From the NCBI GenBank assembly GCA_046861395.1, contig JBHHUC010000042.1, forward strand, positions 1-17,930: a stretch of DNA of 17,930 nucleotides, read 5' to 3'. The notes below the pieces were generated by a model, which worked only from the letters and a program-made list of their open reading frames with translations, did no database searches and was not told the origin of the DNA. Position numbers and translations under genes: made by a program. Positions within the stretch are counted from its first letter, which is position 1. Each line of letters starts with the position of its first letter. Below are positions 1 through 17,294 of the stretch, in pieces. Source of the DNA: Fidelibacterota bacterium. Its GTDB lineage: Bacteria; Fidelibacterota; Marinisomatia; Marinisomatales; JABMOV01.

Positions 1-1380
1 TTACAGCAGGCCGTGTTTTTTCAATTTATAGCGCATCTGGTCGCGGGAAATCTTCAGGCGTTGTGCGGCCCGGGACTGGTTGCCCTGTTCCTGATTCAGG
101 CTCCATTGGATAACATCCTTTTCAATATCAGACCAGGTTTTCCCTTCCAGGTAGGCGTCCAGGGAAAAGACCCCGTCGGGGGTTTCGGCCTTGACGCCGG
201 TTACGGCATTCTGGATGTGGGGCGGTATATGCCACGGTTCCACCTTGGTGGGGCGTTCCAGCAGAAAAATCCGCTCCATGGTATTTTTCAATTCCCGCAC
301 ATTCCCGGGCCAGTCATAGGCACACATGATATCCAGGGCCGATTTGGAAAACCCCTTCACGCGCATTTTCAATTCCACATTGAACTGTTCCGTCAGCTTT
401 TCGATAAGCAGAGGAATATCCTCCTTCCGTTCCCGTAACGGGGGCAGAGTCATGGATATGACATTGAGCCGGAAATAGAGATCTTCCCGGAACATGCCGT
501 CTTCCATTTCCTGGCGCAGGTCCCGGTTGGTGGATGCGATGATCCGCACATTCACTTTTATCTCCCGGGTTCCGCCGACCCGGTAGAAGGACTTGGTTTC
601 CAGAAAACGCAGGAGCTTGGCCTGAAAACTGATGGGAATTTCTCCGATTTCATCAAGATATACCGTACCCCGGTGGGCCAGTTCCACCTGACCGGTCTTC
701 TGCGACTTGGCATCGGTAAAGGCTCCTTTCTCATGGCCGAACAATTCGCTTTCCAGTAAATGTTCCGATAGAGAAGCACAGTTTACAGTAATAAACGGTT
801 TATCCTTCCGGGGGCTGTGTTCATGAATGATGCGGGCCAGGGTATCCTTCCCTGTTCCCGTTTCTCCCAGCATGAGGATGGTTCCCGTATCCGTTCCGAC
901 AATTTTCTGGACGGTTTCCATGATGGGGGTCATGGCCCGGGACTGGCTGATGTAATTCCCCATCTGGTACCGCTTTTCTTCCTCTTCTTCAATCCGATCC
1001 ATTTTCTTTATCTTGTCTTGTTGTTCAATCGCCCGTTCCACCATGAGCGACACTTCTTCCAGATTGATGGGTTTGTTCAGATATTCATAGGCCCCCAGCT
1101 TCAGTGCTTCTACGCTGACAGCATCCGTACCGTAGGCGGTCATAAAGAAAATAATGATGGAGGATGAAAGTGGGTGGATTTCCCGCAGAATTTCGATTCC
1201 GGAAATATCGGGCAGGCGAAAATCCACGAACAGAATATCAGGCGGGTCGGATTTTATTTTCTGGACACCGTCCCGTCCGAATTCAGTAATGGTAGTTTCA
1301 ATGTTCATCTTTTTCAACTGTTCACTCAAAGACCATGCGACCAGTTTTTCATCTTCAATAATCAGGGCACGTAATGTCAT
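1..1380 (-). CDS. Sigma54-dependent response regulator (NtrC/AtoC family; REC-AAA+-Fis HTH)
   Basis: Receiver domain (IIEDE, ILFVDFRLPD, MTAYG, YLNKP). Walker A GETGTGKD, ESELFGHEKGAFTDA, Walker B YLDEIGE, FREDLYFRLNV, WPGNVRELKN. C-terminal HTH NQSRAAQRLKISRDQMRYKLKK. RBS GGAGAGGAGG upstream. Confidence 0.97.
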   Translation of the reverse strand: MTLRALIIEDEKLVAWSLSEQLKKMNIETTITEFGRDGVQKIKSDPPDILFVDFRLPDISGIEILREIHPLSSSIIIFFMTAYGTDAVSVEALKLGAYEYLNKPINLEEVSLMVERAIEQQDKIKKMDRIEEEEEKRYQMGNYISQSRAMTPIMETVQKIVGTDTGTILMLGETGTGKDTLARIIHEHSPRKDKPFITVNCASLSEHLLESELFGHEKGAFTDAKSQKTGQVELAHRGTVYLDEIGEIPISFQAKLLRFLETKSFYRVGGTREIKVNVRIIASTNRDLRQEMEDGMFREDLYFRLNVISMTLPPLRERKEDIPLLIEKLTEQFNVELKMRVKGFSKSALDIMCAYDWPGNVRELKNTMERIFLLERPTKVEPWHIPPHIQNAVTGVKAETPDGVFSLDAYLEGKTWSDIEKDVIQWSLNQEQGNQSRAAQRLKISRDQMRYKLKKHGLL

Positions 1381-1397
1381 GAGGCCTCCTCTCCGGT

Positions 1398-2870
1398 TCA
1401 GACAACCGGCAGTTCAATAATAAATTTGGTCCAGGGAAAACTTTCATTGCAATCCACCAGGATTTTCCCGCCATGCTGCTCCAGTATTGATTTGGACAGC
1501 GACAATCCCAGCCCACTGCCTTTATGCTTGGTTGTGAAAAATGGTTTGAAGATGGATTTCCGTCGGTCAGCCGGAATGAAACTGCCGGTATTTTTAATGC
1601 ATAACCGCACCAGTTCGGGTCGTGGTGTTTCCACGGAAATTTCAATGGTTGCATTTTCCGTTCCCAGGGTAGCTTGGTGGGCATTCAGGAGAATATTGGT
1701 AATCACCTGTTTCAGGGCTTCCTTGTCTCCCTTGATCTCCACGCCATGGGGAAAACGATGTTCGATAATTTCAATATGATCCGATTTAATCTTTTCCCGG
1801 TGCAGGCTCAGGACTTCGTTCACAGTTTCCTTCAAGCTTACCGGTTCCATTTTCAATTTCAGCGGTCTGCTGAAATCTAGTAGATCCTGGACGGTTTTCA
1901 GGACGCGATCAATCTGGGAAAAGATTTCTTCCAGGATGGGATTGTCTTTTCCTTTGTCATCGCCATTCATGATGATCAGGGCATTGCGGATTCCAGAAAT
2001 GGGATTGCGGATTTCATGGGCCACGCTGGCAGCCAGTTCGCCGATGCTGGCCAGTTGCCCGGCCCGGTCCATCTGGATCTGGTGCAGGCGTTCGATTTCC
2101 TTTTTCTTGGCATCCAGTTCAGCGGCCATGGCATTGATATTATTGGCCAGAGCCTGGAGTTCACCGGGTGTTTTCACGGTAATGCGCTTGGAGAAATCAC
2201 CGCTCTTGATTTTCTCTACCTGCCGCTGGATCTTATCATAGGGACGCTGGAAGAAATTCTGATGCATGATGCCGATACTGAAGGTGACGAAGCCGATGAT
2301 GATGATGAAACTGATAAAATCAAACGTGAGCATCATTTGATAGGCTTGTTCTTCGGCATTGCTTTCCACGCCGATTTCGATGAATCCGCGGTGGCTTTGG
2401 GTATCATCGTGGCATTCGTAACAGGCCGGCCGATTGTGAATTCCCGTAATCATGCGCAGTACCGGCGGATCATTGTCATCGGTATAGACATAGAGACTGT
2501 CACGATTATTGTTGATGTCCAGTATTTCCCTGGGAATGGCCAACGTGTCCCCGATGAGGGTGGTATCGGTTGCAAAAGCAACTACAAATTCATTATTCAG
2601 CACATTCACCCACTGAACATTACTGTTCATTTCCATTTCATCGAGCAATAATTGGAAATGATCCGGTTTATGGTATTTCATATTGTGGACAATTTGATTA
2701 TTGACCAATGATTCCAGTGGTTTGATGAGAATGACGATATACTGGTGGAAAATTTTCTTCCGGTATTCATCAATGGCAAAAATCATGGCAGCCCCCAGGA
2801 CCACCATGCCGGTCATAAGAAGAATAATCATTTTGGTTCGCCAACGCAGCCCGCGTATGAAGGAAATCAT
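1398..2870 (-). CDS. Membrane sensor histidine kinase with periplasmic c-type heme motif (TM-sensor[CYECH]-TM-HAMP-HisKA-HATPase)
   Basis: Two hydrophobic segments flank a periplasmic domain containing CYECH (2409-2423). HAMP (GDFSKRI...GELQALANNINAMA), H-box LAASVAHEIRNP, N-box QVITNILLNA, IFKPFFTTK, GSGLGLS. Confidence 0.95.
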   Translation of the reverse strand: MISFIRGLRWRTKMIILLMTGMVVLGAAMIFAIDEYRKKIFHQYIVILIKPLESLVNNQIVHNMKYHKPDHFQLLLDEMEMNSNVQWVNVLNNEFVVAFATDTTLIGDTLAIPREILDINNNRDSLYVYTDDNDPPVLRMITGIHNRPACYECHDDTQSHRGFIEIGVESNAEEQAYQMMLTFDFISFIIIIGFVTFSIGIMHQNFFQRPYDKIQRQVEKIKSGDFSKRITVKTPGELQALANNINAMAAELDAKKKEIERLHQIQMDRAGQLASIGELAASVAHEIRNPISGIRNALIIMNGDDKGKDNPILEEIFSQIDRVLKTVQDLLDFSRPLKLKMEPVSLKETVNEVLSLHREKIKSDHIEIIEHRFPHGVEIKGDKEALKQVITNILLNAHQATLGTENATIEISVETPRPELVRLCIKNTGSFIPADRRKSIFKPFFTTKHKGSGLGLSLSKSILEQHGGKILVDCNESFPWTKFIIELPVV

Positions 2871-2881
2871 CTTTCGTCCTT

Positions 2882-3859
2882 TCAGGGTAAAAACGTTGTT
2901 TTAATCCGGCGTCTGATTTGCCGGGCACTTTTCTTGAATTCCGATTTGGCCTGTTCCACGTCTCCCAGTTTTTCATAAACCAGTCCCCGCCAGAAATGAA
3001 CCCGGTACATGTCCTTCATGGTGGTTACGGCCGTAAAATAATCCCTGGCAGTAACATAATCCCCGGATTCATAGGCCAAAATCCCTAACCCCATCAATAC
3101 AAAATTGGAGGAATCAATCGCAGCCAACCCTGAAAACACCGTGCGGGCGGAGTCATCCTGCCCGTTCTGTATGAGGGCATAGCCCAGCAGAATTCGGTCC
3201 TCCACCGTCAATGTATCCAGTTTACTGATTTCTATCAATGCCAGTTGGTGTTTACCACGCAAGTAGAGTTCCATTGCCAAAGATTCACGCCGTTTCTGTC
3301 GTTTGTCTTGGCGGGAAACAACCGTCGTATCCGGGCGATGAAAGAGGGTGACATATTCAGCGCTGAGAAAATCATTCAAATGCCGGATGAAACCCTGATT
3401 GAATCCCGGGAAATAGGCCAGCAATACTCCTGTGGAGGACACCAGCATGACCGTGGGATAGACCTTCAAGCCGAACTGGGAATAATGATCGAAATGCGGG
3501 TCTGGCACGGAAATCCAGTCGACTTCATTTTCGGTGAACGGCGTGCCGCGATGAAGATGAACCGGCAGAATTGTATCCCGGGGAACGGGTGCCAGAAAGC
3601 GGTCGAGTTCAGTAAAAATCCGTTCCGAATAGTGCTGATCACTACGGGTAAACAGCAATAGAATCGTCGTCCGGGGGGATAGGGCCGGGTCATCAGCCCA
3701 GACCGGTTTCACCAGCAACGAATCAGACAGGGTATCGCCGATATGCCAGATGCGTCCGGCCGCCTGTCCCGGTTCCGATACCCAGCCTCCCAGCGTCAGG
3801 CTGATCAGCAGGAGGCCGACCAGAAACGGCAGCGCATGGTGAGCGGGGGTATAGGACAT
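2882..3859 (-). CDS. Exported protein with thioredoxin/redoxin-like N-terminal domain (no CXXC) and C-terminal TPR repeats
   Basis: N-terminal hydrophobic signal. TTILLLFTRSDQHYSERIFTEL and YSQFGLKVYPTVMLVSSTG resemble the Trx-fold active-site and cis-Pro segments. TPR-like helices (LLGYALIQNGQDDSA, GLGILAYESGDYVTA, FWRGLVYEKLGDVEQAKSEF). Confidence 0.7.
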   Translation of the reverse strand: MSYTPAHHALPFLVGLLLISLTLGGWVSEPGQAAGRIWHIGDTLSDSLLVKPVWADDPALSPRTTILLLFTRSDQHYSERIFTELDRFLAPVPRDTILPVHLHRGTPFTENEVDWISVPDPHFDHYSQFGLKVYPTVMLVSSTGVLLAYFPGFNQGFIRHLNDFLSAEYVTLFHRPDTTVVSRQDKRQKRRESLAMELYLRGKHQLALIEISKLDTLTVEDRILLGYALIQNGQDDSARTVFSGLAAIDSSNFVLMGLGILAYESGDYVTARDYFTAVTTMKDMYRVHFWRGLVYEKLGDVEQAKSEFKKSARQIRRRIKTTFLP

Positions 3860-3861
3860 TT

Positions 3862-5169
3862 TTAATTACTTTGCCGGTCGCGCCGGTAGGTTTTTTCCGA
3901 ATGACAGCCAGGCGCACAACTGCCCCCTTTATCACTCGGTGTAAAGTTGATGGGAAGTAGCCATTTCCCGAATGGCACTCCTTCCCGGATATGGTAGGGT
4001 TTCTGGGAAGCGTGTGTTTCATGGCAGGCGCGACAGGTCCGTCCTTTTTCACGGTTTATGTGAAGGTAATGGAGATTTCGGTCACCATCGCGGAAATTGG
4101 TAAGCACCGCTGTGTTTTGATCAAAGACATTTTCCGCCGGATGGCACTGATAACAAAGGGCATAGTTTTCCACATCGAATCGTTCATAAAAAGATGCCGG
4201 ATAACGGTGCTTCAACAAACGGAAATTGGCGGAACTGTGGGGCTGATGACAGCCGGTACAATCCTTGTCGCGAATGGGGCCGTGCCAGTCTTCGTTCCTA
4301 TCCAGCAAACGCTTCATATTGGCCAGGCCGCCTTTTTTCCGATCGGGATTTTTATTATGGCAACTAAGACAGAGATCGAAACTTTCCGATTTCAGATTTT
4401 TATTTACTGAGGAACCGTGAGGATTATGACAATTCATGCAGGTCTTATCCTTTTCCACGGCTTTATGCACCGTTGTATCGCCTTCTATGCCTTCTTGGAT
4501 TTCATCATGACAACCGAAACATAGGTCCGGCGCCGGATCAATCAACTGAAATTTCGCTTCCGATGAATGGGGACTGTGACAGTTGGAACACGATTCTTCC
4601 ACCGGGTCGTGCTGAAACGCGAAATTGGTGATTTCCTCTTTCTTGGTTTCATGACATTCATAGCAGGTGCTGTTCACTTCATCATAGCGCAACAGGTATC
4701 CCTTGGTATTGTCATGTCCGGAATGGCAGACATCACAGGCGCCGACGGCCACCGGCCCATGGGTGTATTCATGTTCTTCCTGACCCACTTCATGACAATC
4801 ATTGCACACGTCGGCCGTTGTTTCACCGCGCAGCAAATTGGAGAAATTGCTCTGGTGGGGATTGTGGCAGGTTGTGCATTCACCGTCTTCCACCGGTTGA
4901 TGCAGTTCGGAATATTCTTCAGTAACATCATGACAGCCGGTACATAAATCCAAAATGGATTCTTCCACCAGTTCGAATTCGTTCCCCCGCCCGTCCGGAT
5001 GTCGTTTTTTCACCTGATCGTGGCAGGCACCGCAGTCGTCATCTTCCACCGGGACATGGAGGTATTCCATTTCCACCTGGTCGGCGTGACAACCGGCAGC
5101 CGTACAATCCTGTGCTCCGGCGGGAACCACCAAGACAAATGTCAGGCTGATATATAATATGGGTTTCAT
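3862..5169 (-). CDS. Periplasmic multiheme c-type cytochrome, 13 CXXCH + 1 CX4CH + 1 CX3CH (paired-CXXCH repeat type)
   Basis: Sec signal peptide ending AGA/QD. Motifs counted in the translation. Repeated unit H-x-P-V..C..CH.PH.S....LL......C..CH. TAATG overlap with the upstream stop codon. Confidence 0.95.
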   Translation of the reverse strand: MKPILYISLTFVLVVPAGAQDCTAAGCHADQVEMEYLHVPVEDDDCGACHDQVKKRHPDGRGNEFELVEESILDLCTGCHDVTEEYSELHQPVEDGECTTCHNPHQSNFSNLLRGETTADVCNDCHEVGQEEHEYTHGPVAVGACDVCHSGHDNTKGYLLRYDEVNSTCYECHETKKEEITNFAFQHDPVEESCSNCHSPHSSEAKFQLIDPAPDLCFGCHDEIQEGIEGDTTVHKAVEKDKTCMNCHNPHGSSVNKNLKSESFDLCLSCHNKNPDRKKGGLANMKRLLDRNEDWHGPIRDKDCTGCHQPHSSANFRLLKHRYPASFYERFDVENYALCYQCHPAENVFDQNTAVLTNFRDGDRNLHYLHINREKGRTCRACHETHASQKPYHIREGVPFGKWLLPINFTPSDKGGSCAPGCHSEKTYRRDRQSN

Positions 5170-6815
5170 TAATAGTCCTCCGGTTTATGATCTTCCCCAT
5201 GGCAGCGTAAATAACATTTTCCATGGTTATTTCCTAAATCCTCCCAATACAAGGAACCTTGTGAATTGGGGGTCACATAATCGGTATTGAAATTGATTAA
5301 ATGGGTATTATTGTACGATCCATGGGGATCGTGGCAAGTGGTACAGGCCGCCTTTTTCTTTTCCACATGCTCCTTATGTTTAAAACGCGATTCATCATTC
5401 AGGATGGAGGCCCGATCGTGACACTTATAGCACAAGGCATAAATACTGGATGATTCTGAATTATAATCGGAAAAAATCTGCTGCCGTTCCAGGATCGGAG
5501 TATAATTTGATCCGTGTGGCCCGTTGGGTGACTGTCCATTAACAACACCATTATTATTATGACAGTCAGTACAATACATGATGGAATTCTCATTCCAGGG
5601 TGTAATCAAACTGGGTACATTGTTATTCCGACCAATTCCAAAAACAGGATGATAGGAAGGATTGGATTCGGAAAATTCCAGACGAAGATTAGTCTGGCTA
5701 TCCAGGCGTGGTACATAAACATTATTCCCCAGTGCGTTTTCATGACATTTCAGACAAACTTCATATTCATAGGCCACGGCATTGACGGCACTACCGCTTT
5801 TATCTACCCCCGAGGCCCCACTCAGAGCGCCGGACGCGTAGGGCGCGGTGGCGTTGCCGGTTGTGGCTGTGTGGGGACTGTGACAATCGGTACACTCCAC
5901 GTGTGTGGACATCTGGTTCAGATCCTCGTTTGGTGAATGAATCATGGTATAATCTTCCACCGGGTGAGTCGACGATTTGACCAGGGAGGATTGAATATCC
6001 GCCTGGGCCACATTTCCGTTATGACAGATCAGACAATTATCTTCTTCGGCGCTGGCTTTCAGCAACCAGTAAGCGCCATTTCCCCCATGGGGGGTGTGAC
6101 AATTATTACAGGAATTTTCATTTACCGTCGTCCAATCGGTATTGGGCCAGGGATCGGGAGACTGTCCGTTCCAGGTGGCCGTGGACGTGAAGTGGGCTCC
6201 GCTGGACCAGGTGGATACATTATGACAACGGGCACATATGGCCCCGCCCACCGGGTTTTCCACCAAAAAATCGCCGGCAGAATTATCATGGGGATCATGA
6301 CAGGAAGAGCATTCCAGGGGATTGCTTTCGTCGGTATGCATATCGTGACATCCATTGCAATTATAACCGACCGGATGACTATCCAGATTCAGGGGATGAT
6401 CATCACTCAGGTTTTCAGAAAGGTTGGTACGATAGGAAGTGGGAATCTTATCCATCCCGACGGGAAATGCTATGGGATCAGGTCGTGTCAGTACCAAACC
6501 GAGCGCGACCGTTCCGTCGTGACAGCTCAGGCAGAGTCGTGAGGACTGTCCCGGTTGCATAGTATTGGTTTGGAGGGATGGACTGCCGTACAGGGTATAC
6601 GTTACATTGGAGGCCGAACGATTCCATAGCGGAGCGTCGGTAGCTCCGCCATGGGTGGCATGGCAGAAGATACAGACTTCATTTTCTTCTGTGGATTTAA
6701 GTTCTCCCGTTCCGGATATGGATAAATTATGCTTTGTATTTATGATAGAACTCTGGGCTGACAAACCATAGGCGCAGACCAGTAATAATGTTATGCCAAT
6801 GATGGGTTTATTCAT
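5169..6815 (-). CDS. Multiheme c-type cytochrome, 12 CXXCH + 1 CX3CH, N-terminal OmcE-like domain; probably extracellular
   Basis: Signal peptide MNKPII...LSA/QS (start ATG 6815 preferred, 6827 possible). 13 heme motifs counted. SIINTKHNLS, CIFCHATH, PLWNR, CLSCHDG, NLSDDHP, LECSSCHDPHDN. Asn/Ser/Thr-rich composition. Confidence 0.93.
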   Translation of the reverse strand: MNKPIIGITLLLVCAYGLSAQSSIINTKHNLSISGTGELKSTEENEVCIFCHATHGGATDAPLWNRSASNVTYTLYGSPSLQTNTMQPGQSSRLCLSCHDGTVALGLVLTRPDPIAFPVGMDKIPTSYRTNLSENLSDDHPLNLDSHPVGYNCNGCHDMHTDESNPLECSSCHDPHDNSAGDFLVENPVGGAICARCHNVSTWSSGAHFTSTATWNGQSPDPWPNTDWTTVNENSCNNCHTPHGGNGAYWLLKASAEEDNCLICHNGNVAQADIQSSLVKSSTHPVEDYTMIHSPNEDLNQMSTHVECTDCHSPHTATTGNATAPYASGALSGASGVDKSGSAVNAVAYEYEVCLKCHENALGNNVYVPRLDSQTNLRLEFSESNPSYHPVFGIGRNNNVPSLITPWNENSIMYCTDCHNNNGVVNGQSPNGPHGSNYTPILERQQIFSDYNSESSSIYALCYKCHDRASILNDESRFKHKEHVEKKKAACTTCHDPHGSYNNTHLINFNTDYVTPNSQGSLYWEDLGNNHGKCYLRCHGEDHKPEDY

Positions 6816-7797
6816 AGAGCATCTCAAATATCTGAATCCGTTTATTCATGGTATCGGTCACATAAATCATGTCCCCGTCGATTTCCAAGTCAGTGGGCGA
6901 CAATAATTCACCTGTTTTGTGACCGGAGTTGCTCACAACCAGGAGACAGGATCCGTTTTGATTGAAAATCTGAAAATTATCGAAACTGGTATCGATGGTA
7001 TAGACACGGCCGGCAATATCCACACCCACTCCCTTGGGACGATTCAATTGACCGGCGGCCAGGCCGCGCTCCCCGAATGCAGCGCGAAAGGACCCGTCGG
7101 GACGGAAACTCACGACCCTGAAATTCATCGTATCGGAAACATATATGGTACCATCCGGTGTCACGGTTAAAAAGGTGGGATAATTCAAATAACCGGTCTC
7201 AGCCCCGTGTTTACCCAGCGTCCGCAAATAGCGCCCGTCCCGGTCCAAAACCAGGACACCGTGCCGTTCGGTGTCAACAACATAATAGTGTCCGTCATGG
7301 TAGCGAATACCGGTCAATCGGCCGATGTCCGCCTGAGGAACAAGATAACGCCGAAATGTTCCATCCTTTCTGAATTCCCAGATACCGGGTCCGGCCGTGG
7401 ACGTAACCGCCAAACCATCATCGGTCCAAGTCACATCAATGGGGACGAATAACGCTTTTTTCTCCACGTCATCCGGGCCGATGAACCGATATTTTCGTGA
7501 CTCTGGGTTCAAGATGAAAACGCCCTTTTTCCCAGGATCGGCTACGGCAATCAAGCCGTTTTCCACGGCCAGACCCATCGGTTGCATGAAAAATGGTTTT
7601 TGTTCGCCGCTCAAGAGACGGGCCAGCCAGGTTTTCACTCCCGAATCCTTGCGGTAACCGGAAATATCCGCGATTGATCCCACCCAGCGGACCTTGGGAT
7701 CTTCGGGCGGGTCGGGCCATACCCAATCCGGCGATTGTCCCAGCAGGGGAAACAAAAGCAGGAAGGTCAGGATCTGAAATCGAGTTGTATTTTCCAT
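6808..7797 (-). CDS. Exported NHL-repeat six-bladed beta-propeller protein
   Basis: Signal peptide, then WPDPPEDPKVRW. NHL repeats such as LNYPTFLTVTPDGTIYVSDTMNFRV, LNRPKGVGVDIAGRVYTIDTSFDNFQIF, LSPTDLEIDGDMIYVTDTMNKRIQIF. Confidence 0.92.
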   Translation of the reverse strand: MENTTRFQILTFLLLFPLLGQSPDWVWPDPPEDPKVRWVGSIADISGYRKDSGVKTWLARLLSGEQKPFFMQPMGLAVENGLIAVADPGKKGVFILNPESRKYRFIGPDDVEKKALFVPIDVTWTDDGLAVTSTAGPGIWEFRKDGTFRRYLVPQADIGRLTGIRYHDGHYYVVDTERHGVLVLDRDGRYLRTLGKHGAETGYLNYPTFLTVTPDGTIYVSDTMNFRVVSFRPDGSFRAAFGERGLAAGQLNRPKGVGVDIAGRVYTIDTSFDNFQIFNQNGSCLLVVSNSGHKTGELLSPTDLEIDGDMIYVTDTMNKRIQIFEMLYE

Positions 7798-9719
7798 TGT
7801 TGATCCATTTCTGTTTCTTTAAAAACCCGGGACAGGAAGTTTTCGTAGGAGACGGTCAGGTCAAAGCGGCGGTTCTGGTATTTCAGGATGGCATGATAGC
7901 GTTTTTCGAAAATCTGGTTATATTTACCATCTACCTCTTTTTGGCTGAATCCCACTTTGATTTTTATCGCGCGCGAAAGACGGCGGAAGGCTTCCAGCAT
8001 AATGAACGTATTCATCTGGCGATCATCTTTTAGTGGTAGGAATTCTGAACCATATTGCAGATTCAGCATGATGTACTGGGTCAGGAATGAACCCAGGATC
8101 GTATTGAAGCCGGTATCCAGACGTTCGTAGGGCGTAATGGAAGAATTGGAACTGGTGTATTCGCTGGTCAGCTTAACAGGCGGATAATCCACAGTGATAA
8201 AATAACTGCGGTCGCGTCGGTTATCCTCCACCGTAAGTGTTGTCCAATCCGATTTGGGATATTCCATCGTACTTTGCCGCATCCCGAAATTCAGTCCCCA
8301 GAAAGTCTGATAATCGTAGCTGACACCAAATTGTTTCCCCACGGAACCCGACACTTCGTTTTTTCTTCCCTGCCATTGGTAACGGATCAGGACGGCCTGA
8401 CTATCGGGAATGGAAGTGGTGGGTGTTTTTATTAATTCCACCCGGTTGTCAAACACCAGGACGGAATAATCCAGGTCGGCCTGGTATTGAAATGTTCCTT
8501 CGGCATTGAAGACTTCAATGGTGGCGGGAAGTATGTTTTCCTGGCGGAGAATAATTTGGTCGAAAATGTCAAAATTCAGAACATCTTCCACCCATCGTTT
8601 CAGCGGGTCCTCACTGTTAATATTTTCCCAATGAGGAAGATAGGCATAATTCATATTCAGGCGACCCACCGGTAGCTTCTTCGTGTATTGCCAATCACCG
8701 GTAAAGTCCGTCGTACGCTGTTGGTAATCGTGTTCGATATAATAATCCTGCCGGAGAGACAGAAGCGTTGTAAGGCTGGCGTATAGCTGGTGGTTCAGGG
8801 CCGTATTCGCGGTATGACTGCGATTGACCCGGCCGTTCGTATCACTGTAGCGAAATAAATATCCGGCCGTGGAGTTCAGAGTATGGGACCATTCATAATT
8901 GGCCGAATTGGTGATATTGACGGTTTGAAGATCCTCCTTACTCAATATCTGGTTGACAAACAGAGAAGAATAGAGCTCCGATTTTCCCTTGTTGTGTAAA
9001 GGCAGGGAATTGCTGGACTGGAGGGTCATATTACGCACGTCGGTACGGTACAATCCCTTTTCTTCCCGGATAACACGGCTGAAATTCAGGTTGGCTGAAC
9101 CATTGATCGATTGCATTGTACCCCAAGCTCCCCGTAATCCAGAAGTGCGTTCTGCGTGGATGATAGAACGGTTACCGTATGCTTCGGCTCGTCGACTCCT
9201 ACCTGTTTCCATATTGAGACAAAAAGACGGTGTCCGCCAGCTTCCCCGCGTGTACCAGCGCCGGGAGCGATTGATGGAATTGTCAAAAAAATTACTATTC
9301 AGTTTACTGTACTTCTGATTATATCCCATGGCAAAATTCAACGGTTTACTCCCCAGCCAGATACTCTGAAAGGCAATATCATTGAAAACATTCTGACTTC
9401 TGGTTTTCTCCTGCTCGGAAAAAGCCTGGGCGTAAACATTCTGGTTCACCCCTAGACCTGTGTTCAGACTGTAAAACATGAGGTTGGGGTGATAAATGCT
9501 TCCGGTGCCGTTTACCCCGATCGATTCGAAAAATGTGTTCAGGGAGGATTTTCCATTAAAGGAAGCGTCGGCGATCTGACGGTCCTTGTTCTGAAGGTCA
9601 GATGAAAAATGCACTTCGTAACCTTTCACGGAAAAGGAAAATAATCTCCGTTGCATCATTTGTCCCGGCACCACCGTCACCAGAATCCAGCACAGCATGA
9701 CGAGTCGTAACCGGTTCAT
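7767..9719 (-). CDS. Large outer-membrane beta-barrel protein (putative porin of a porin-cytochrome conduit)
   Basis: Start re-assigned to ATG 9719, which gives an ATGA overlap with the upstream stop and the signal peptide MNRLRLVMLCWILVTVVPG. About 650 aa rich in alternating amphipathic, Tyr/Ser/Asn-rich strands. C-terminal strand WKIQLDFRS. Located between multiheme cytochrome genes. Confidence 0.75.
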   Translation of the reverse strand: MNRLRLVMLCWILVTVVPGQMMQRRLFSFSVKGYEVHFSSDLQNKDRQIADASFNGKSSLNTFFESIGVNGTGSIYHPNLMFYSLNTGLGVNQNVYAQAFSEQEKTRSQNVFNDIAFQSIWLGSKPLNFAMGYNQKYSKLNSNFFDNSINRSRRWYTRGSWRTPSFCLNMETGRSRRAEAYGNRSIIHAERTSGLRGAWGTMQSINGSANLNFSRVIREEKGLYRTDVRNMTLQSSNSLPLHNKGKSELYSSLFVNQILSKEDLQTVNITNSANYEWSHTLNSTAGYLFRYSDTNGRVNRSHTANTALNHQLYASLTTLLSLRQDYYIEHDYQQRTTDFTGDWQYTKKLPVGRLNMNYAYLPHWENINSEDPLKRWVEDVLNFDIFDQIILRQENILPATIEVFNAEGTFQYQADLDYSVLVFDNRVELIKTPTTSIPDSQAVLIRYQWQGRKNEVSGSVGKQFGVSYDYQTFWGLNFGMRQSTMEYPKSDWTTLTVEDNRRDRSYFITVDYPPVKLTSEYTSSNSSITPYERLDTGFNTILGSFLTQYIMLNLQYGSEFLPLKDDRQMNTFIMLEAFRRLSRAIKIKVGFSQKEVDGKYNQIFEKRYHAILKYQNRRFDLTVSYENFLSRVFKETEMDQQWKIQLDFRS

Positions 9720-10306
9720 GAATCCTCTGAAACATTGGTCCGTAAATACTGTTTGCTGATATTGGAAAAATGAGGTGAATGACAGGATTCGCATTTTTGC
9801 TCCGCTGTGAGCTGATGTTCGGGAATCGTTTCCCTGTCAATGGCTTCGTGGCAAAAGGTACATAGCTCCTGGCCGGCCCGGATTAACAAATGTTCGTTGG
9901 TGGTCCGGTGCGGGTTATGACAAATCATGCATTGTCCCACAGCCACCGGACCATGGGTGTAAAGGCGACGCTCATTAAATTTCTCATGGCAGGTTTTACA
10001 GAGGATATCCACCCTGTTTTCCACCAGTTTGTTGCCAAACCCTGATTCATGGCAATCATTGCAGCGTTTTTCTTTATACGGCTTATGTAAATACCAGGTG
10101 GTCTGCGGCACCCGTGGTTGGCGGGCCTGGGGTTGCGTTGCCGTGGAATCCCGGGTGGAATCTACAACGGTCACCATCTGTTCCTGACTTCCGGGGGGCG
10201 GAACACCATCGAAAAAAAAGGATAACACCTGGTACCTCGTTTCCTCATCACAGCTGGTGGGCAGTGACAGGATGCCAAGTGTAAGGATCATCAGCAGAGA
10301 TTTCAC
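9716..10306 (-). CDS. Pentaheme c-type cytochrome lipoprotein
   Basis: GTG start overlapping the upstream TGA. Lipobox-like LPTS-C, then YQVLSFFFDGVPPP and a Thr/Gln/Pro linker. Five motifs: CNDCH, CKTCH, CMICH, CTFCH, CESCH. Confidence 0.92.
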   Translation of the reverse strand: MKSLLMILTLGILSLPTSCDEETRYQVLSFFFDGVPPPGSQEQMVTVVDSTRDSTATQPQARQPRVPQTTWYLHKPYKEKRCNDCHESGFGNKLVENRVDILCKTCHEKFNERRLYTHGPVAVGQCMICHNPHRTTNEHLLIRAGQELCTFCHEAIDRETIPEHQLTAEQKCESCHSPHFSNISKQYLRTNVSEDS

Positions 10307-11445
10307 TCATTCTCACCGTTTTCTGTGGATTCCTTTTTTGTGGGCGTGGGCAACAGGGGAAGGGCATCCATCTGGGTGCTGTCCACTTCGATTTTTCCGT
10401 AAAACGTGATTTTATCAGGCCCGTACTGATTCGTCACTGCCAACAGTTCCGTAAGTCGGTAGCCAGATAATACATAATCGGAAAAATAGTCCAGACTGGT
10501 AGTGTCGATGGTAATCTGAGCCGGCAGATACATATCCCCCGGCCCCTGATAGGGACCACCGAAAAACATGAGCAACTGCCCTTCACGATTGAACATCTGA
10601 ACATTCTCGAAAGCCGAGTCCACCACATAGAGTACACCGTCCTTATCGACGGCAATTCCCTTGGGCCGGGCGAATTTCCCCAAGTTGCGTCCAATCCCGC
10701 CCACGGATTTGATATATCGACCGCGATGGTCGAATTCATTCACGCGAAATTGACCGAAATCCGTGATGTAAATATTCCCGTTATTTCCGATAGCGATGGA
10801 ATAGGGCACAAACACACGCTGGGAATCGGGTAGATCAAGATTATGGGGGGGGAATTCACCGATCGGCTGCTTCCGCGATTTTGACCACACTTCGACCACG
10901 CGATCATCGTAATCGGTGACCAGTAGTGAGTCACCGTAAAATATCAAATCAATCGGTTTCCAGGAATCGCTTGTCAGGGCATATTTATATTTCAGATCTT
11001 TGTCATAAACCACAACTTGCTGCCGTTCTGTATCCGTGACATAAATGTCACCGTTATTGTCGACCGCAACATTGATGGGTTTACGCAGAACACCACGACC
11101 TCCCGGACTGAAAGTCCGCATATCTTTATTTTCCAAATCGATGATGACCAGTCCCGGTAACATGGAATCACAAATATAGATTTTTCCGTGTTTTACTGCA
11201 ATTCCGTAGGGCTTTTCAATACCGATTTCCAGTTCCATGAGTGAGCTCCCGAATAGGAACTGATCCAGTTTCCCCGGCTGCTTGATATCGGATGAGCTGG
11301 AAATGGCCCGAAGGAACTGTAATTTTGCCTCTGCTGGAGGCGGCGGATAAATGGGAATGTTTTCGAAGTCTACCAGTACTTTCGTCGTAGGGGCGGCGCA
11401 CCCCGCCAGCAAGAATAATAATCCTATCACTATAAATTTTTTCAT
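10303..11445 (-). CDS. NHL-repeat beta-propeller lipoprotein
   Basis: Lipobox LAG-C and YPPPPAEAKLQF. NHL repeats EKPYGIAV, LRKPINVAVDNNGDIYVTD, FARPKGIAVDKDGVLYVVDSAFENVQMF. RBS AAAGGAAGG. Confidence 0.93.
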   Translation of the reverse strand: MKKFIVIGLLFLLAGCAAPTTKVLVDFENIPIYPPPPAEAKLQFLRAISSSSDIKQPGKLDQFLFGSSLMELEIGIEKPYGIAVKHGKIYICDSMLPGLVIIDLENKDMRTFSPGGRGVLRKPINVAVDNNGDIYVTDTERQQVVVYDKDLKYKYALTSDSWKPIDLIFYGDSLLVTDYDDRVVEVWSKSRKQPIGEFPPHNLDLPDSQRVFVPYSIAIGNNGNIYITDFGQFRVNEFDHRGRYIKSVGGIGRNLGKFARPKGIAVDKDGVLYVVDSAFENVQMFNREGQLLMFFGGPYQGPGDMYLPAQITIDTTSLDYFSDYVLSGYRLTELLAVTNQYGPDKITFYGKIEVDSTQMDALPLLPTPTKKESTENGENE

Positions 11446-11470
11446 TCGACCTTCCTTTCAATGAAGAAAA

Positions 11471-11486
11471 AGCAAACTTTATGCCA
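11471..11486 (-). promoter_or_regulatory. Sigma54 (-24/-12) promoter of the cytochrome operon
   Basis: Minus strand reads TGGCATAAAGTTTGCT, i.e. GG-N10-GC matching TGGCAY-N5-TTGCW, 25 nt upstream of the first start codon. The operon encodes a sigma54 activator. Confidence 0.88.
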
Positions 11487-11589
11487 CCACCCCGAGGATT
11501 TCGATTCTTACACCTGTGATAGCCAAAACCTGTTTTTCCCGGAACTGTAGAAAACTTACAGCGGGAATACAGTCGGAATAAATGAAAAT

Positions 11590-11605
11590 TGTGGATTATT
11601 ACGCA
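11590..11605. promoter_or_regulatory. Candidate upstream activator site (TGnG-N8-CnCA dyad)
   Basis: TGTGGATTATTACGCA lies about 105-120 bp upstream of the -24 element. It is 14/16 identical to TGGGGATTATTACACA at 11751-11766. Confidence 0.55.
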
Positions 11606-11718
11606 GTTTGAAGAAAAGGATATCCAATCCATTAATCATTGATTATACTTACACTACACAAATAAATCAGAAGCATCAGCTGTCAAACGAAGTGAAAATT
11701 CCGCATTTGACAGTGTAT

Positions 11719-11766
11719 TGTGTAATAATCCCCAGTAAAAAACAAAATACTGGGGATTATTACACA
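11719..11766. repeat. Perfect 19-bp inverted repeat with 10-nt spacer (hairpin and/or paired activator sites)
   Basis: TGTGTAATAATCCCCAGTA-AAAAACAAAA-TACTGGGGATTATTACACA, 18 nt past the c554 stop codon. No U-tract follows on the minus strand. Confidence 0.9.
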
Positions 11767-11784
11767 TTCAGCAAGGAACAATAA

Positions 11785-12375
11785 TTATTGCTGACGAAAT
11801 CCCTCCGGAAAATTGTGAGCGATTTTCTGTACGAATTCATCAAAGTTGAACGGCTTGTAACTGGGGCTTTCTTCATTGTGGCATTTTACGCATGTTTTCT
11901 CATCCGGGATAGTTAACCCGTAATCTGCTGCCGCCAGTGTGCCGTCAAAAATGCCCTTCATAGTTTTCTTCTTCTTATACTTTGAGCCGGGACCGTGGCA
12001 GGCTTCGCAGCCCACGGACTGTAAAGCCGACATTAATTTCACTTCTTTGGTTGGCTTTCCTTTATCCGTTACCTGGCTCCAGAAATCATCACCCTTAATT
12101 TCATAACCGCCTTTATCATAGCCGGTTACATGACATTTTACACATTCCGGGGCTTCCGTTGGTGAAACTTTGATTCCTCTTTCCTGGGCATATTTCAATG
12201 CTTCTTCCGTTTTCAGTGCTTCAAAGGCCTTGGCATGTTTAGTTTCAGCCCAAACCGAATACTGCTTCCCGCTCTTTGTTTTATTATGACACATTTTGCA
12301 TTTCTTAGTCCCGACGTAATCCTGGGCCATCAATCCGGTAATACAAAGTACCAGAACTATCCCGAATTTTTTCAT
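11785..12375 (-). CDS. Tetraheme cytochrome c554-family periplasmic protein
   Basis: Start ATG 12375 after a GGAGG RBS. Signal peptide ending LMA/QD. YVGTKKCKMCH, W.ETKHAKAF, CVKCHVTG, VGCEACHGPGS, CVKCH; this spacing is typical of the c554 family. Confidence 0.9.
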   Translation of the reverse strand: MKKFGIVLVLCITGLMAQDYVGTKKCKMCHNKTKSGKQYSVWAETKHAKAFEALKTEEALKYAQERGIKVSPTEAPECVKCHVTGYDKGGYEIKGDDFWSQVTDKGKPTKEVKLMSALQSVGCEACHGPGSKYKKKKTMKGIFDGTLAAADYGLTIPDEKTCVKCHNEESPSYKPFNFDEFVQKIAHNFPEGFRQQ

Positions 12376-12434
12376 TGTACCTCCAATTTCATTCACTGTG
12401 ATGCACGAATTTATCCTAAAACTTATTAATAGAG

Positions 12435-12450
12435 AACAAATTTTATGCCA
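12435..12450 (-). promoter_or_regulatory. Putative second sigma54 promoter (non-canonical -12 GT) for the c554 gene
   Basis: Minus strand reads TGGCATAAAATTTGTT, 14/16 identical to the promoter at 11471-11486, about 60 nt upstream of the c554 start. Confidence 0.6.
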
Positions 12451-12504
12451 TGAATTCCTTCTGTGAACCGGCTGGTAATGGATTTAATTTCTCCAATGAT
12501 ACGC

Positions 12505-12978
12505 ATGCGACAGTATTGTTGGCTTCCGGTGCTTTTCCTGGCGATCGTCCTGTTCGCATCCTGCGATACTTCCACTGGCCTGGAACCGGTGACCGGAGTT
12601 GCAGGGCGATTAATCATTTCCGGGCATTGGCCTGATAATATCCATGGCGTTGTGGTGGCCGCTTTTACCGAAATTGATCTAGATAATCCTATTGACTATC
12701 TGGTGGATTTCAGTTCGGTTCTGGAGCCGCCGCAGGATACCTTGTCCTATTTCATCCAGCTATATCCAGGCTCCTTTGTGTTGGCCCCGGTCGGCATTCT
12801 TATCGATCCTGCTTTTCTGGTGGCCAATCTGGATTCCATTATCGCATCCGATTCCATTCCTCTCATTCCGCTCGTTGATCCGGATCCCACCCATTTATTT
12901 GAAACCATCCGCAGCGTGGGGTTGGGTAAGCAATCTGTGACCACCGTTGCGGACATTGTTCTGGAGATTAATCCTTGA
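12505..12978 (+). CDS. Hypothetical lipoprotein
   Basis: MRQYCWLPVLFLAIVLFAS-C lipobox (start 12505 or 12496). The stop overlaps the TTG start of the TonB receptor. Confidence 0.75.
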   Translation: MRQYCWLPVLFLAIVLFASCDTSTGLEPVTGVAGRLIISGHWPDNIHGVVVAAFTEIDLDNPIDYLVDFSSVLEPPQDTLSYFIQLYPGSFVLAPVGILIDPAFLVANLDSIIASDSIPLIPLVDPDPTHLFETIRSVGLGKQSVTTVADIVLEINP

Positions 12979-15149
12979 AACTCCGCTTTTTTGTTATCCT
13001 GCTTGTTGTTTCCTTTCTTGTGGCGCAAACGGGACGGATTTACGGGGTGGTGCAGGATGGTGAATCCGGAGAACCGCTGATCGGCGCCAATATTCTTATC
13101 AAGGGATCACTGCAGGGTACCGCCACGGATGAAAACGGTGAATTTGATCTGTCCCGTCTTTCCCTGGGTCGCCATACCATCTTTGTAACCATGATCGGTT
13201 ATCAAGCCCTTGATCAGGATGTGGAACTGACGGAGCAGTCCCCGGAAGTCTATCTGTCATTGGGGCTGGACCGGGATGTCATCGCCTTGTCCCGCGTTAT
13301 TGTTACGGCCGGACGATCGGAGCAGGATCTCATGGAAGCTCCCTTATCGGTTTCCATTCTGGAACCGCGTGTCATTGAGGAAAAGCTGGCCACTTCTCTG
13401 GAAGAGGTATTGATCTTCCAACCGGGTGTGGCCATCGTGAAAAATCAATTGAATATTCGCGGCGCCTCCGGGTTTACTTTGGGAGCCGGCAGCCGGTCTC
13501 TATTGTTACTGGACGGCATTCCGCTCATGGGCAGTGCCGCCGGCAACATTACCTGGAGCATTGTTCCCACATCTGAGATTAAGCAGGTGGAAATTGTCAA
13601 ATCCGGCGGTTCGGCCCTGTATGGTTCCGGCGCCATGGGCGGCGTCGTAAATATCCTGACACGAACGGCACCTCTGAAGCCGGAAACCCGGATTGCGCTG
13701 AAGAAAGGCATTTATAGTACACCCCGGTTCCGACAATGGCAATGGCGGGAGCAACCGGGATTTTATAATGTACTTGATATTTCCCACGCCCGGCCGTTGG
13801 GATCCCACGGAATGTGGATCCGGTTTCAATCTATTCGGGATGACGGGTATACGGAACTGGGCTGGAAACGAAGTGTCAATTTGACGGGTAAACTGAAATT
13901 GAATTTCGGAAATCGTTTCAGCGGTTCCGTGTATGCCAATTTCCTGGCCGATAACGGAGGCCTGGAATCACAATGGAAAAGTCCCGCCGATCCGTTCGAA
14001 GCTCCGGACAATTCGATCCATGATGAGTCGCAAGGCACCAAATTGAATACTAATGCCGGTTTGAGCATTATTCTCAATTCCCGTTCCATCCTGCGTTTGA
14101 AAACAGCGCTTTATGATGTACACTGGAAAAATACAGGCACCAATAATGATACTTCCGATGAACAAAAATTCTATGGCGACATCCAGTATGATGTTCGCCT
14201 GTGGGGTCGGCTGCGGCTGGTATCGGGTATGACGGTTCAGCGGGCCCAAATTGATGCCGACATTTTCGGGAAACATACTACATTCACCCATGCTGAATAC
14301 GCCCTTTTGAAGGGTAAAATTGGGGCCGGACTCTTATCGCTGGGTGGTCGGTTCGAAAGTTTTCTGGTGGACGGCACACTCCTGGATCAGCAATTCATTC
14401 CCCAGATTGCCGCCAATTATCGGCTGGCACCGTGGTTTTCTTTGCGCACGTCCGTGGGGAAGGGATTCCGTTCGCCCACGGTTGCCGAACTCTTTTCCCG
14501 CTCCCGGCTGAATGTATTTACCATTGCACCCAATCCCAATCTGGAGGCCGAAATTTCCCTGGGCAGCGAAATCGGTTTCACCGCCCGGGTTGCCGGCCGC
14601 TCCTCCTTTCTCAATTATCTTCAGGCCGACGGAGCCTGGTTTACAACTTCCTTCGAGCAGTTGATTGAACCGACTCCCGATTCATTTGGTGTCATACATT
14701 TTCAAAATGTGACCAAAGCCCGGATTTCCGGATTTGATTTCGGTCTCCAGGGACAGTTCCTGGCGCGGCACGTTATGGTGCAGGGGGCCTATACTTATTT
14801 GAATCCTGATGTTCTTAGTCCGGCCGGTGATGTCATCGACACCCTGGCCTATCGCTATCGTCAGCATTTCACGCAAACCGTAACCGTCCGCCTCGGTCCC
14901 TGGTCCTTCTCTATTGATTCCCGACATACCAGCGCGCTGGAAAAGACAAAATTATTTTCGGAAAATCCCTTAACCGGGAGCGACCGGAGGGTGCCGGTTC
15001 ATGTGTGGAACAGCGGGTTGGCCTGGCAGGATCGGCATTGGGAAATTCACTTCCGGGTAGAGAACATTTTTCAGTATTATTACACCGATCTGGAAAGGAA
15101 TATGGGGCCGGAGCGGATGGTTCTTATGTCCGTATTCTGGAAAATATAG
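12975..15149 (+). CDS. TonB-dependent outer-membrane receptor with N-terminal carboxypeptidase-regulatory-like domain
   Basis: GRIYGVVQDGESGEPLIGANILIKG...ATDENGEF. Plug motifs VIVTAGR, LNIRG, LLLLDGIP, IKQVEIVKSGGSALYGSGAMGGVVNILT. FRSP and NPNL motifs. C-terminal VENIF...VFWKI. Confidence 0.95.
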   Translation: MKLRFFVILLVVSFLVAQTGRIYGVVQDGESGEPLIGANILIKGSLQGTATDENGEFDLSRLSLGRHTIFVTMIGYQALDQDVELTEQSPEVYLSLGLDRDVIALSRVIVTAGRSEQDLMEAPLSVSILEPRVIEEKLATSLEEVLIFQPGVAIVKNQLNIRGASGFTLGAGSRSLLLLDGIPLMGSAAGNITWSIVPTSEIKQVEIVKSGGSALYGSGAMGGVVNILTRTAPLKPETRIALKKGIYSTPRFRQWQWREQPGFYNVLDISHARPLGSHGMWIRFQSIRDDGYTELGWKRSVNLTGKLKLNFGNRFSGSVYANFLADNGGLESQWKSPADPFEAPDNSIHDESQGTKLNTNAGLSIILNSRSILRLKTALYDVHWKNTGTNNDTSDEQKFYGDIQYDVRLWGRLRLVSGMTVQRAQIDADIFGKHTTFTHAEYALLKGKIGAGLLSLGGRFESFLVDGTLLDQQFIPQIAANYRLAPWFSLRTSVGKGFRSPTVAELFSRSRLNVFTIAPNPNLEAEISLGSEIGFTARVAGRSSFLNYLQADGAWFTTSFEQLIEPTPDSFGVIHFQNVTKARISGFDFGLQGQFLARHVMVQGAYTYLNPDVLSPAGDVIDTLAYRYRQHFTQTVTVRLGPWSFSIDSRHTSALEKTKLFSENPLTGSDRRVPVHVWNSGLAWQDRHWEIHFRVENIFQYYYTDLERNMGPERMVLMSVFWKI

Positions 15150-15242
15150 AAAATATTTTCTTTTTGCATTTATGGACAAAAGGACTCTATTTTCCGTGGA
15201 TGGCATGAAAAATTAATTAATAACGAGGAATTAGGAGAAACC

Positions 15243-15851: not shown

Positions 15852-15881
15852 TCAGGTGTTGGTCCACAGGACTTTTGAAAC

Positions 15882-15919
15882 GAAAAGGCAGTACCGGGAG
15901 TACTGCCTTTTCTGATTTT
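15882..15919 (+). terminator. Intrinsic terminator-like hairpin
   Basis: GAAAAGGCAGTAC-CGGGA-GTACTGCCTTTTC followed by TGATTT. Confidence 0.8.
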
Positions 15920-15940
15920 ATCCATTTTTCGGAGGTTATC

Positions 15941-17269: not shown

Positions 17270-17294
17270 AAAGGGGCTTTTTAGCCCCTTTTTT
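17270..17294. terminator. Likely bidirectional intrinsic terminator between convergent genes
   Basis: AAAGGGGCT-TTTT-AGCCCCTTT followed by further T residues, between the FadL-like and PadR stop codons. Confidence 0.85.

Follow-up and report, generated by a model that had tools for sequence, protein, structure and literature searches.

The DNA analysed here is contig JBHHUC010000042.1 of a Fidelibacterota bacterium (assembly GCA_046861395.1). The window is this whole contig of 17,930 nt (C88 of genome G000), and the subject is the multihaem cytochrome locus on the minus strand of its positions 1 to 12450. The central product of the locus is a 13-haem cytochrome (cyt13) that carries an OmcE nanowire domain as its head, a feature absent from an earlier preliminary description of this DNA, and whose 8-haem tail is predicted to sit in the lumen of a co-encoded outer-membrane beta-barrel. 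Judged from its homologies, the locus is a variant within the omcE/Uet family rather than the first of a new class. It may be regarded as an extracellular electron transfer module in which a trans-membrane conduit is connected to a subunit of the nanowire type, a reading that is favoured here with modest confidence.

Ten genes were confirmed in positions 1 to 12450, all on the minus strand. Nine of them form an operon (1..11445) with intergenic gaps of -31 to +17 nt, which bears out the abutting arrangement reported in the preliminary description. The order of transcription is NHL1, 5-haem cytochrome (cyt5), barrel, NHL2, cyt13, 15-haem cytochrome (cyt15), thioredoxin-TPR (Trx-TPR) protein, haem-motif kinase and sigma-54 regulator; a c554-family gene stands 339 nt upstream of the operon. 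The likely starts were corrected to 9719 for the barrel (650 amino acids, aa), 6815 for cyt13 (548 aa) and 12375 for the c554 gene. The haem motifs of the locus number 38, as counted before, namely 35 CxxCH and 3 CX3-4CH (4 in c554; 5 in cyt5; 12 CxxCH and 1 CX3CH in cyt13; 13 plus one CX4CH and one CX3CH in cyt15; 1 in the kinase). In 200 shuffles of positions 1 to 12450, the six-frame CxxCH count averaged 0.67 and never exceeded 4. Domain searches confirm NHL, paired-CXXCH, c554, TPR, HisKA/HAMP and sigma-54 activator domains and, together with the motif counts, uphold the earlier assignment of cytochromes with 5, 13 and 15 motifs, two NHL propellers and a haem-bearing two-component system. 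The signal-peptide types given below were judged by eye from the N-termini.

The signal peptide and OmcE-like head of cyt13 comprise residues 1-199 (6219..6815, minus strand), and the tail with its eight haem motifs comprises residues 200-548 (5169..6218, minus strand). The first approximately 200 residues are a complete OmcE domain: the sole PDB sequence match is the OmcE nanowire 7TFS (E 2.1e-28), and 7TFS is also the only significant fold match of the cyt13 model (Foldseek E 3e-7), the only match to OmcS in the fold search being insignificant (E 3.6). Aligned with stand-alone OmcE, the head retains the four OmcE haem motifs and the four OmcE distal His, and the tail begins directly after haem 4, at the point where stand-alone OmcE stops. 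Of 8,000 scored candidates, 7,601 match the cyt13 family at E ≤ 1e-20, which makes it a large one, and an alignment of 116 members shows 12 haem motifs and another 16 His without variation. The extra motif CNGCH (153-157) is an insertion found in 16% of the aligned rows with co-occurring His147 and His160, and is, by this alignment, lineage-specific; this thirteenth motif recalls the five-haem OmcE-like proteins of PMC13712944.

The barrel (7767..9719, minus strand) has no Pfam or NCBIfam family match. Its homologues number 445 representatives at E ≤ 0.001, and an AlphaFold2 model with 126 of them in the alignment has a predicted local distance difference test score (pLDDT) of 93 and 28 strands, counted by hand from DSSP output. 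The model upholds the assignment of the 650-aa protein as a transmembrane barrel, on which the preliminary description had staked its reading. Among 48,161 chains the best structural match is MtrB (Z 17.3, root-mean-square deviation 10.0, 419 aligned), and the barrel profile has no significant match among PDB sequences (best E 0.027). The C-terminus of outer-membrane barrels is, as a general rule, periplasmic. Because it is taken to be so here, a beta-rich insert, which spans about residues 370-453 (nt 8361-8612), would by strand parity be extracellular.

The complex of the barrel (residues 22-650) and the cyt13 tail (residues 200-548) was predicted on custom alignments, with neither haems nor the head included, and scored 0.64, while the best of three controls scored 0.00. 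This mark is reached by 116 of 157 solved pairs and 2 of 215 mismatched pairs, rates which are only rough for custom alignments. The runs agree in at least 83% of the contacts, and the partner pLDDT is at least 75. Contacts of the tail are seen on 25 of the 28 barrel strands, where they alternate and occupy mostly polar positions (27 of 88 contact residues are hydrophobic, as against 86 of 154 among their neighbours), and would therefore face the barrel lumen. Of the porin-cytochrome modelling called for in the preliminary description, this prediction covers the barrel and the tail, and it supports their binding in a complex folded without haems. The best contact pairs connect cyt13 437-473 with barrel residues 526-533, 559-572 and 596-603, which lie at the outer rim by strand parity; from these pairs, rather than from coordinates, it may be inferred that the late haems point outward and that the OmcE head is periplasmic.

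In all 11 other genomes with the cluster, one or two tetrahaem OmcE-family genes of 200-240 aa follow the regulator, which was identified by search label in eight of these relatives, by position and size in two and by its C-terminal sequence in one. One of the partner subunits matches 9YUQ and 7TFS over its full length (E 1e-23 and 1e-22). In the partner subunits the four CxxCH and the four distal His are conserved, and the chain terminates at CxxCHxK, as it does in 7TFS and 9YUQ; the subunit genes often stand in tandem copies behind an enhancer and promoter of their own. Position 1 of the host contig is the regulator stop codon, so that the locus is cut at its left edge, and a stand-alone OmcE is presumed for the host from its relatives. 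Considering these genes, and the maturation genes that sit on other contigs of the genome, the locus is not self-contained as had been claimed. No host contig overlaps the sequence left of position 1, and an exact 37-nt pattern for the left edge found no match in metagenome contigs, a search from which near-identical records may be absent. Four runs of a single sample, which bears the label hydrothermal vent metagenome and is possibly the source, contain the window DNA, and the run contigs span positions 422-13000 unbroken in three of the four. No RNA data set was listed as containing it, which speaks neither for nor against expression. In three of the four runs the contigs break 42 nt beyond the regulator stop, where relatives have tandem enhancer repeats; in the fourth the contig extends 1,688 nt left of position 1, about the length of two omcE genes and spacers.

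The smallest omcE cluster, reported from five phyla, combines OmcE and a large barrel with two multihaem cytochromes and two beta-propeller lipoproteins (PMC13712944), and it is established that OmcE forms filaments with an inter-subunit His (PMC9473688, PMC13712944). The window locus shares with the Geobacter/Desulfuromonas cluster (PMC13712944; 7TFS, 9YUQ) a kit of two propellers, multihaem cytochromes and large barrel, to which its relatives add the OmcE subunit gene. From 301 genomes of the phylum of Desulforhopalus sp. IMCC35007 (locus L062), a named isolate that carries the window's cluster type, 15 loci were examined, of which five (L094-L098) resemble the Desulfuromonadia type, ResB and CcsA being confirmed in L096. 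The OmcE and NHL genes of these five loci, and in four of them also the 9-10-haem genes, are homologous to window genes. The hidden Markov models (HMMs) of the window NHL families score 258-319 bits on their NHL proteins, and that of the cyt15 family scores 319-339 bits on four of the loci; by these scores, cyt15 is a relative of the cytochrome with 9-10 haems in omcE clusters of the Desulfuromonadia type. In contrast, their 720-810-aa barrel candidate gave no HMM match and only 8% in hhalign with a five-sequence profile, which is compatible with remote homology, and all five loci are without an OmcE-headed long cytochrome and without a cyt5 ortholog. The window locus also differs from the Geobacter type in its own two-component system and in the ninth His of the partner subunits. 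The resB/ccsB genes do not adjoin it, its upstream neighbours being the c554 gene and a TonB-dependent receptor region and its downstream side being cut. The host phylum is outside the five phyla of PMC13712944, and no description of such a cluster in the host phylum was found in the literature searched. Two further loci of the host phylum (L111, L145) have an 8-haem cytochrome, NHL, omcE, a 557-562-aa barrel-like gene (with a weak barrel match in L111), NHL and a 10-haem OmcE-headed cytochrome, an arrangement intermediate between the Geobacter type and the window type.

The homologies extend to the Uet cluster, which is known in Tenderiales and Gallionella (bioRxiv 10.1101/2022.05.06.490989; PMC10734462) and has the gene order tetrahaem, peptidyl-prolyl isomerase (PPIase), barrel, c7, c7, cupredoxin-position gene, c7, NHL, NHL, 11-haem (bioRxiv 2022.05.06.490989). 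Of 400 genomes of the class Gammaproteobacteria, 48 had a match; 20 loci were examined, seven of them with the published Uet gene order, and the Uet label rests here on gene order and domains, not on Tenderia sequences. In one such locus (L125), ResB, CcsA and TPR genes come after the 11-haem gene. The protein at the UetA position is homologous to OmcE (E 6e-24). The UetC-position barrel aligns with the window barrel end to end save for the insert (hhalign 97.5%, E 7e-12, 528 columns), and both are predicted to have 28 strands; barrel profiles can match by pattern alone, so that the two low controls (8% and 0.4%) matter. The UetJ-position 11-haem protein has the same OmcE head and continuation as cyt13, is matched by the cyt13 HMM at 211-272 bits, and is preceded by NHL genes. 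On the other hand, the PPIase (UetB), trihaem c7 (UetDEG), cupredoxin (UetF), ccsAB and bat genes of the Uet cluster are found neither in the window nor in the clusters of its relatives. The window has cyt5 and cyt15 in their place and a different gene order, the UetJ-position proteins are of 840-934 aa as against 548 aa in cyt13, and the UetC-position barrel is without the insert. Two loci (L120, L121) with the same barrel type have trihaem cytochromes instead of cyt5 and bridge to the Uet layout. On the strength of these alignments, the window barrel, NHL proteins, subunit and long cytochrome are homologous to those of Uet-order loci, and the OmcE and Uet electron-uptake systems are linked by homology, a link that was not found stated in the literature searched. 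What the preliminary description offered as an analogy of NHL proteins with omcE and Uet clusters proves to be homology, as the OmcE, NHL and barrel matches indicate.

The locus shares with Shewanella MtrCAB (6R2Q) a large barrel with a predicted internal multihaem cytochrome; MtrB is the best fold match of the barrel, and cyt15 is related to MtrA (match to chain 6R2Q_A, E 1.4e-16). Membership in MtrCAB was nevertheless rejected, because the barrel has no MtrB family match, the DmsE-family score of 135 is below the cut-off of 192 (TIGR03508) and no MtrC gene is present; moreover, the predicted plug is an OmcE-fold protein. The proposal of a non-Mtr porin-multihaem conduit is supported by the barrel model and by the tail predicted in its lumen. 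The peat clusters EET1-EET4 of Acidobacteriota and Verrucomicrobiota combine porin, scaffold and cytochromes with an OmcE-like cytochrome (models with 8-13 haems) modelled as membrane-spanning (bioRxiv 10.64898/2026.05.27.727921). The cyt13 family was found here in the same two phyla, and the comparison is one of text descriptions; the preprint may already cover the cyt13 family or architecture, while its available text is silent on NHL genes, on OmcE subunits that stand alone, on Uet and on clusters of the host phylum. In the omcS-companion (osc) and OetABI systems, nanowire subunit genes are linked to porin and cytochromes (PMC13194489, PMC10553843). These systems are built on OmcS/OmcX and are set apart from the window locus by their descriptions and by the insignificant OmcS match. 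Less of the locus is new than had been claimed, the type of gene set being in print (PMC13712944; bioRxiv 2022.05.06.490989; possibly bioRxiv 2026.05.27.727921).

In a scan of GTDB genomes by cyt13, at least 567 relatives were confirmed among at least 642 stretches, and the best 80 loci were used; as these were chosen by cyt13, the counts describe the cyt13 neighbourhood and not all omcE clusters. Within 10 kb of cyt13 there are NHL genes in 76 loci, the barrel in 70, a stand-alone OmcE in 55, cyt5 in 41, cyt15 in 25, a sigma-54 regulator in 15, and Trx-TPR and c554 in four each. All 55 loci with a stand-alone OmcE also have the barrel, and in eight of the ten barrel-less loci cyt13 lies within 1.2 kb of the locus start. 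The common gene order is omcE, NHL, small cytochrome, barrel, NHL, cyt13, with an NHL gene immediately before cyt13 in 69 of the 80 loci. Counted at the level of phyla, at least 15 groups carry the core, among them Planctomycetota, Pseudomonadota, Bacteroidota, Verrucomicrobiota, Calditrichota and Acidobacteriota. Of the 401 host-phylum genomes covered, 11 including the host have full-length cyt13 at E < 1e-200, one more is seen at a contig edge, and 45 genomes match at 1e-20. The cluster is patchy, being carried by none of three genomes of the host's own family. In a FastTree phylogeny of 82 cyt13 rows, the 10 host-phylum sequences form one clade (support 100); a recent transfer from another phylum is therefore not supported. 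The nearest named cyt13 homologues, at 60-63% identity, bear the labels FCB group bacterium and Ca. Neomarinimicrobiota, in agreement with the FCB-type host suggested before, and the host is probably a member of the Marinisomatota.

A related 11+1-haem cytochrome of 537-559 aa stands with NHL genes and an 18-haem OmcE-like cytochrome in three loci (L140, L142, L143), which show no match to either barrel profile. It is present in 25 of 26 genomes of one family and in 4 of 4 of another (f24/f29), both in the host phylum. In another locus (L100:10587-17765), a 2,393-aa cytochrome with 46 CxxCH and 13 CX3-4CH lies directly behind NHL and OmcE-like genes.

The locus appears well supported as self-regulated. 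Its last two genes encode a sensor histidine kinase (1398..2870, minus strand; 490 aa), with one CxxCH (residue 150) before the HAMP domain, and a sigma-54-dependent response regulator (1..1380, minus strand; 459 aa) with receiver, AAA+ with GAFTDA loop and Fis helix-turn-helix. The kinase CxxCH is kept in the kinases of 8 of 8 relatives, and its region would be periplasmic; the sensor domain has no match among PDB sequences. The rpoN gene was found in the genome. By pattern scan, a sigma-54 -24/-12 promoter match lies 41 nt upstream of NHL1 (11472..11486, minus strand) and a second, sigma-54-like match lies upstream of c554 (12436..12450, minus strand); these are the only two in the window, compared with 50 in 2.37 Mb. 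Three copies of a 16-bp palindromic enhancer-like motif start at 11590, 11719 and 11751 (11590..11766). They were located with a matrix built from the palindrome in relatives only, which genome-wide gives four matches of at least 20 bits, three of them between c554 and NHL1. The fourth (C91:6996) is intragenic, and there is no genome-wide excess (55 matches of at least 12 bits, against 53 and 64 in Markov controls), so that no wider regulon is claimed. In six genomes outside the training set, all 11 matches of at least 17 bits in cluster loci precede NHL1 or separate the regulator and omcE. A promoter pattern stands ahead of omcE in seven of 11 relatives (two by strict scan, three by eye and two more in a separate check). 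The self-regulation asserted in the preliminary description is thus supported by promoter, enhancer sites and rpoN, and the palindrome would be the binding site of the regulator.

Among the other operon products, cyt15 (3862..5169, minus strand; 435 aa) is a paired-CXXCH cytochrome with a signal peptide and is probably periplasmic. The cyt5 protein (9716..10306, minus strand; 196 aa) has a lipoprotein-type signal (Cys19) and is swapped for trihaem cytochromes, or absent, in some homologous loci. Of the two NHL beta-propellers, a lipobox is evident only in NHL1 (10303..11445, minus strand; 380 aa; Cys16), the first gene of the operon; NHL2 (6808..7797, minus strand; 329 aa) has a signal peptide without an evident lipobox. 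The Trx-TPR protein (2882..3859, minus strand; 325 aa) was assigned by its TPR match and by a TlpA/ResA-like thioredoxin fold (TM 0.73 to a redoxin model), both of which agree with the preliminary description. It contains no cysteine, so that an active thiol-disulfide role for its Trx domain was rejected, and it is a probable assembly chaperone. The c554-family tetrahaem cytochrome (11785..12375, minus strand; 196 aa) is present upstream as described, but it adjoins the operon in 0 of 7 relatives with upstream DNA and, with a like gene within 10 kb in only four of the 80 loci, was rejected as a core gene; it is a separate gene, possibly co-regulated. Next to the 11+1-haem cytochrome of L142 there is a c554 homologue that has a similar sigma-54 motif.

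The mature c554, barrel, NHL2, cyt13 and cyt15 proteins (3862-12375) are all predicted to start with Gln after the signal peptide. Mature exported chains starting with Gln are known in Bacteroidota as the pyroglutamate 'Q-rule', and these N-termini resemble them. To the right, on the plus strand of positions 12463-17248, lie genes for two lipoproteins, one on either side of a TonB-dependent receptor (CarboxypepD_reg and plug), and for a FadL-like porin candidate of 470 aa that matches no family, followed by a PadR regulator at 17293-17820; the right end of the contig overlaps contig C63. Elsewhere in the genome, contig C35 (15110-24115) carries a second multihaem cluster, PCC3-like by layout, in which genes for a membrane protein, an Fe-S/flavoprotein-like product and a possible outer-membrane protein of 512 aa accompany three cytochromes (20, 31+3 and 8+1 motifs). 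Contig C39 (5012-9950) carries a possible third conduit, with a 394-aa barrel-like gene and 11-, 7+2- and 17+1-haem cytochromes, the last of which starts NapC-like and resembles a 17+1-haem gene that follows omcE in L139. Contigs C7, C71 and C136 carry three alternative-complex-III or Qrc-like modules, read from N-termini only (pentahaem/decahaem cytochrome, molybdopterin-type subunit, Fe-S protein and NrfD-like protein), which are candidate inner-membrane partners.

In the favoured reading, cyt13 would thread its 8-haem tail through the 28-strand barrel and form a haem path across the outer membrane, while its OmcE-like head would offer an end-to-end docking face for stand-alone tetrahaem OmcE subunits. 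These subunits, encoded past the regulator under their own sigma-54 promoter as seen in relatives and presumed here, would lengthen the haem chain into a polymer, short or long. On the periplasmic side electrons would be relayed by cyt15 and cyt5, and assembly would be scaffolded or chaperoned by the pair of NHL propellers and by the redox-inactive Trx-TPR protein. The haem kinase would sense redox state and, acting through the sigma-54 activator and the enhancer palindromes, would drive both promoters. Of the two directions, export of electrons to solid or high-molecular-weight acceptors would be somewhat likelier than uptake; the host genome (94% complete) yielded no RuBisCO, a weak hint against autotrophic uptake in the style of Uet.

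Several observations weigh against this reading. The host assembly (94% complete) has no stand-alone OmcE gene, its contig stopping at the regulator. The partner subunits have LWNH in 45 of 52 aligned sequences and in all 11 of the host phylum, that is, a ninth His that could satisfy the open haem and stop polymerisation; 7TFS, 9YUQ, all five Desulfuromonadia-type OmcEs and 97 of 116 cyt13 heads have LWNR instead. Geobacter-type clusters, for which filaments are proven, are without cyt13 and have a barrel without detectable homology. The complex was folded without haems, without the cyt13 head and on custom alignments, and its score may be raised by likeness to MtrAB. The enhancer match is missing at the cluster in one of the six test genomes, and the promoter pattern in four of the 11 omcE upstream regions. 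The host encodes secretins, so that the subunits need not use the barrel, and long-range current through cytochrome filaments is itself disputed (PMC13194489).

Some of these points would fit a static MtrCAB-like conduit without a filament, the alternative nearest to the preliminary description, in which cyt13 is a fixed MtrA-like wire, its head a periplasmic contact and the nine-His tetrahaem protein a monomeric surface cytochrome exported otherwise. The ninth His fits a capped monomer, the tail-in-lumen model has MtrA-like polarity (437-473 at the outer rim), MtrB is the best fold match, secretins are present, and OmcE-like cytochromes that look related span the pore in the models of the peat preprint. 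Such a conduit, however, leaves unexplained the four invariant OmcE distal His of the head, a subunit that ends at haem 4, and the tandem subunit copies with their own enhancer and promoter, and it is considered unlikely, though a serious contender. Alternatively, cyt13 might be the base anchor and terminator of an OmcE filament, with the head outward and the tail in the pore and periplasm. A nine-His, four-haem anchor has been sought by Petersen et al. (PMC13712944). The tail continues after haem 4 with further invariant His (208, 243) like a fused next subunit, cyt13 co-occurs with barrel and omcE, and an anchor of this kind fits the His count; yet the haem-10 region lies at the outer rim in the contacts that are best resolved, which would fit a head-in orientation better, and such an anchor is considered distinctly improbable. 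A periplasmic and outer-membrane redox chain for soluble or colloidal substrates (humics, sulfur species or chelated metals), or an electron capacitor, in place of mineral or electrode respiration would be compatible with the lack of known host physiology, the haem-copper oxidase subunits in the host genome and its several other multihaem clusters. The OmcE/Uet homology and a pore-filling haem protein point instead to trans-membrane transfer, and this explanation is given very little credence.

Within the favoured reading of a conduit joined to a nanowire-type subunit, a more specific and doubtful view is that the barrel is a nanowire usher and cyt13, with its UetJ homologues, the tip initiator. 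The tail would plug the pore first, OmcE subunits would add to the periplasmic head, and the filament would be pushed out tip-first, ending in the 8-haem contact domain. Nanowire secretion, anchoring and periplasmic wiring are stated as unanswered in the Discussion of PMC13712944, and that paper reports no anchor or tip candidate in omcE operons. If true, the usher view would answer the tip and secretion questions, Uet would become an OmcE-nanowire system, and the machine would extend to at least 15 phylum-level groups including Marinisomatota.

The value of the locus lies in the OmcE-headed cytochrome that is predicted in the pore and in the OmcE-Uet link. The cluster encodes a candidate for the anchor or tip, an OmcE-headed cytochrome whose tail is modelled in a co-encoded barrel, and this makes a testable complex. 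The homologies would join OmcE of metal reducers and Uet of electron uptake, which are treated separately in the papers cited here, and the Marinisomatota would gain a regulated extracellular electron transfer module.

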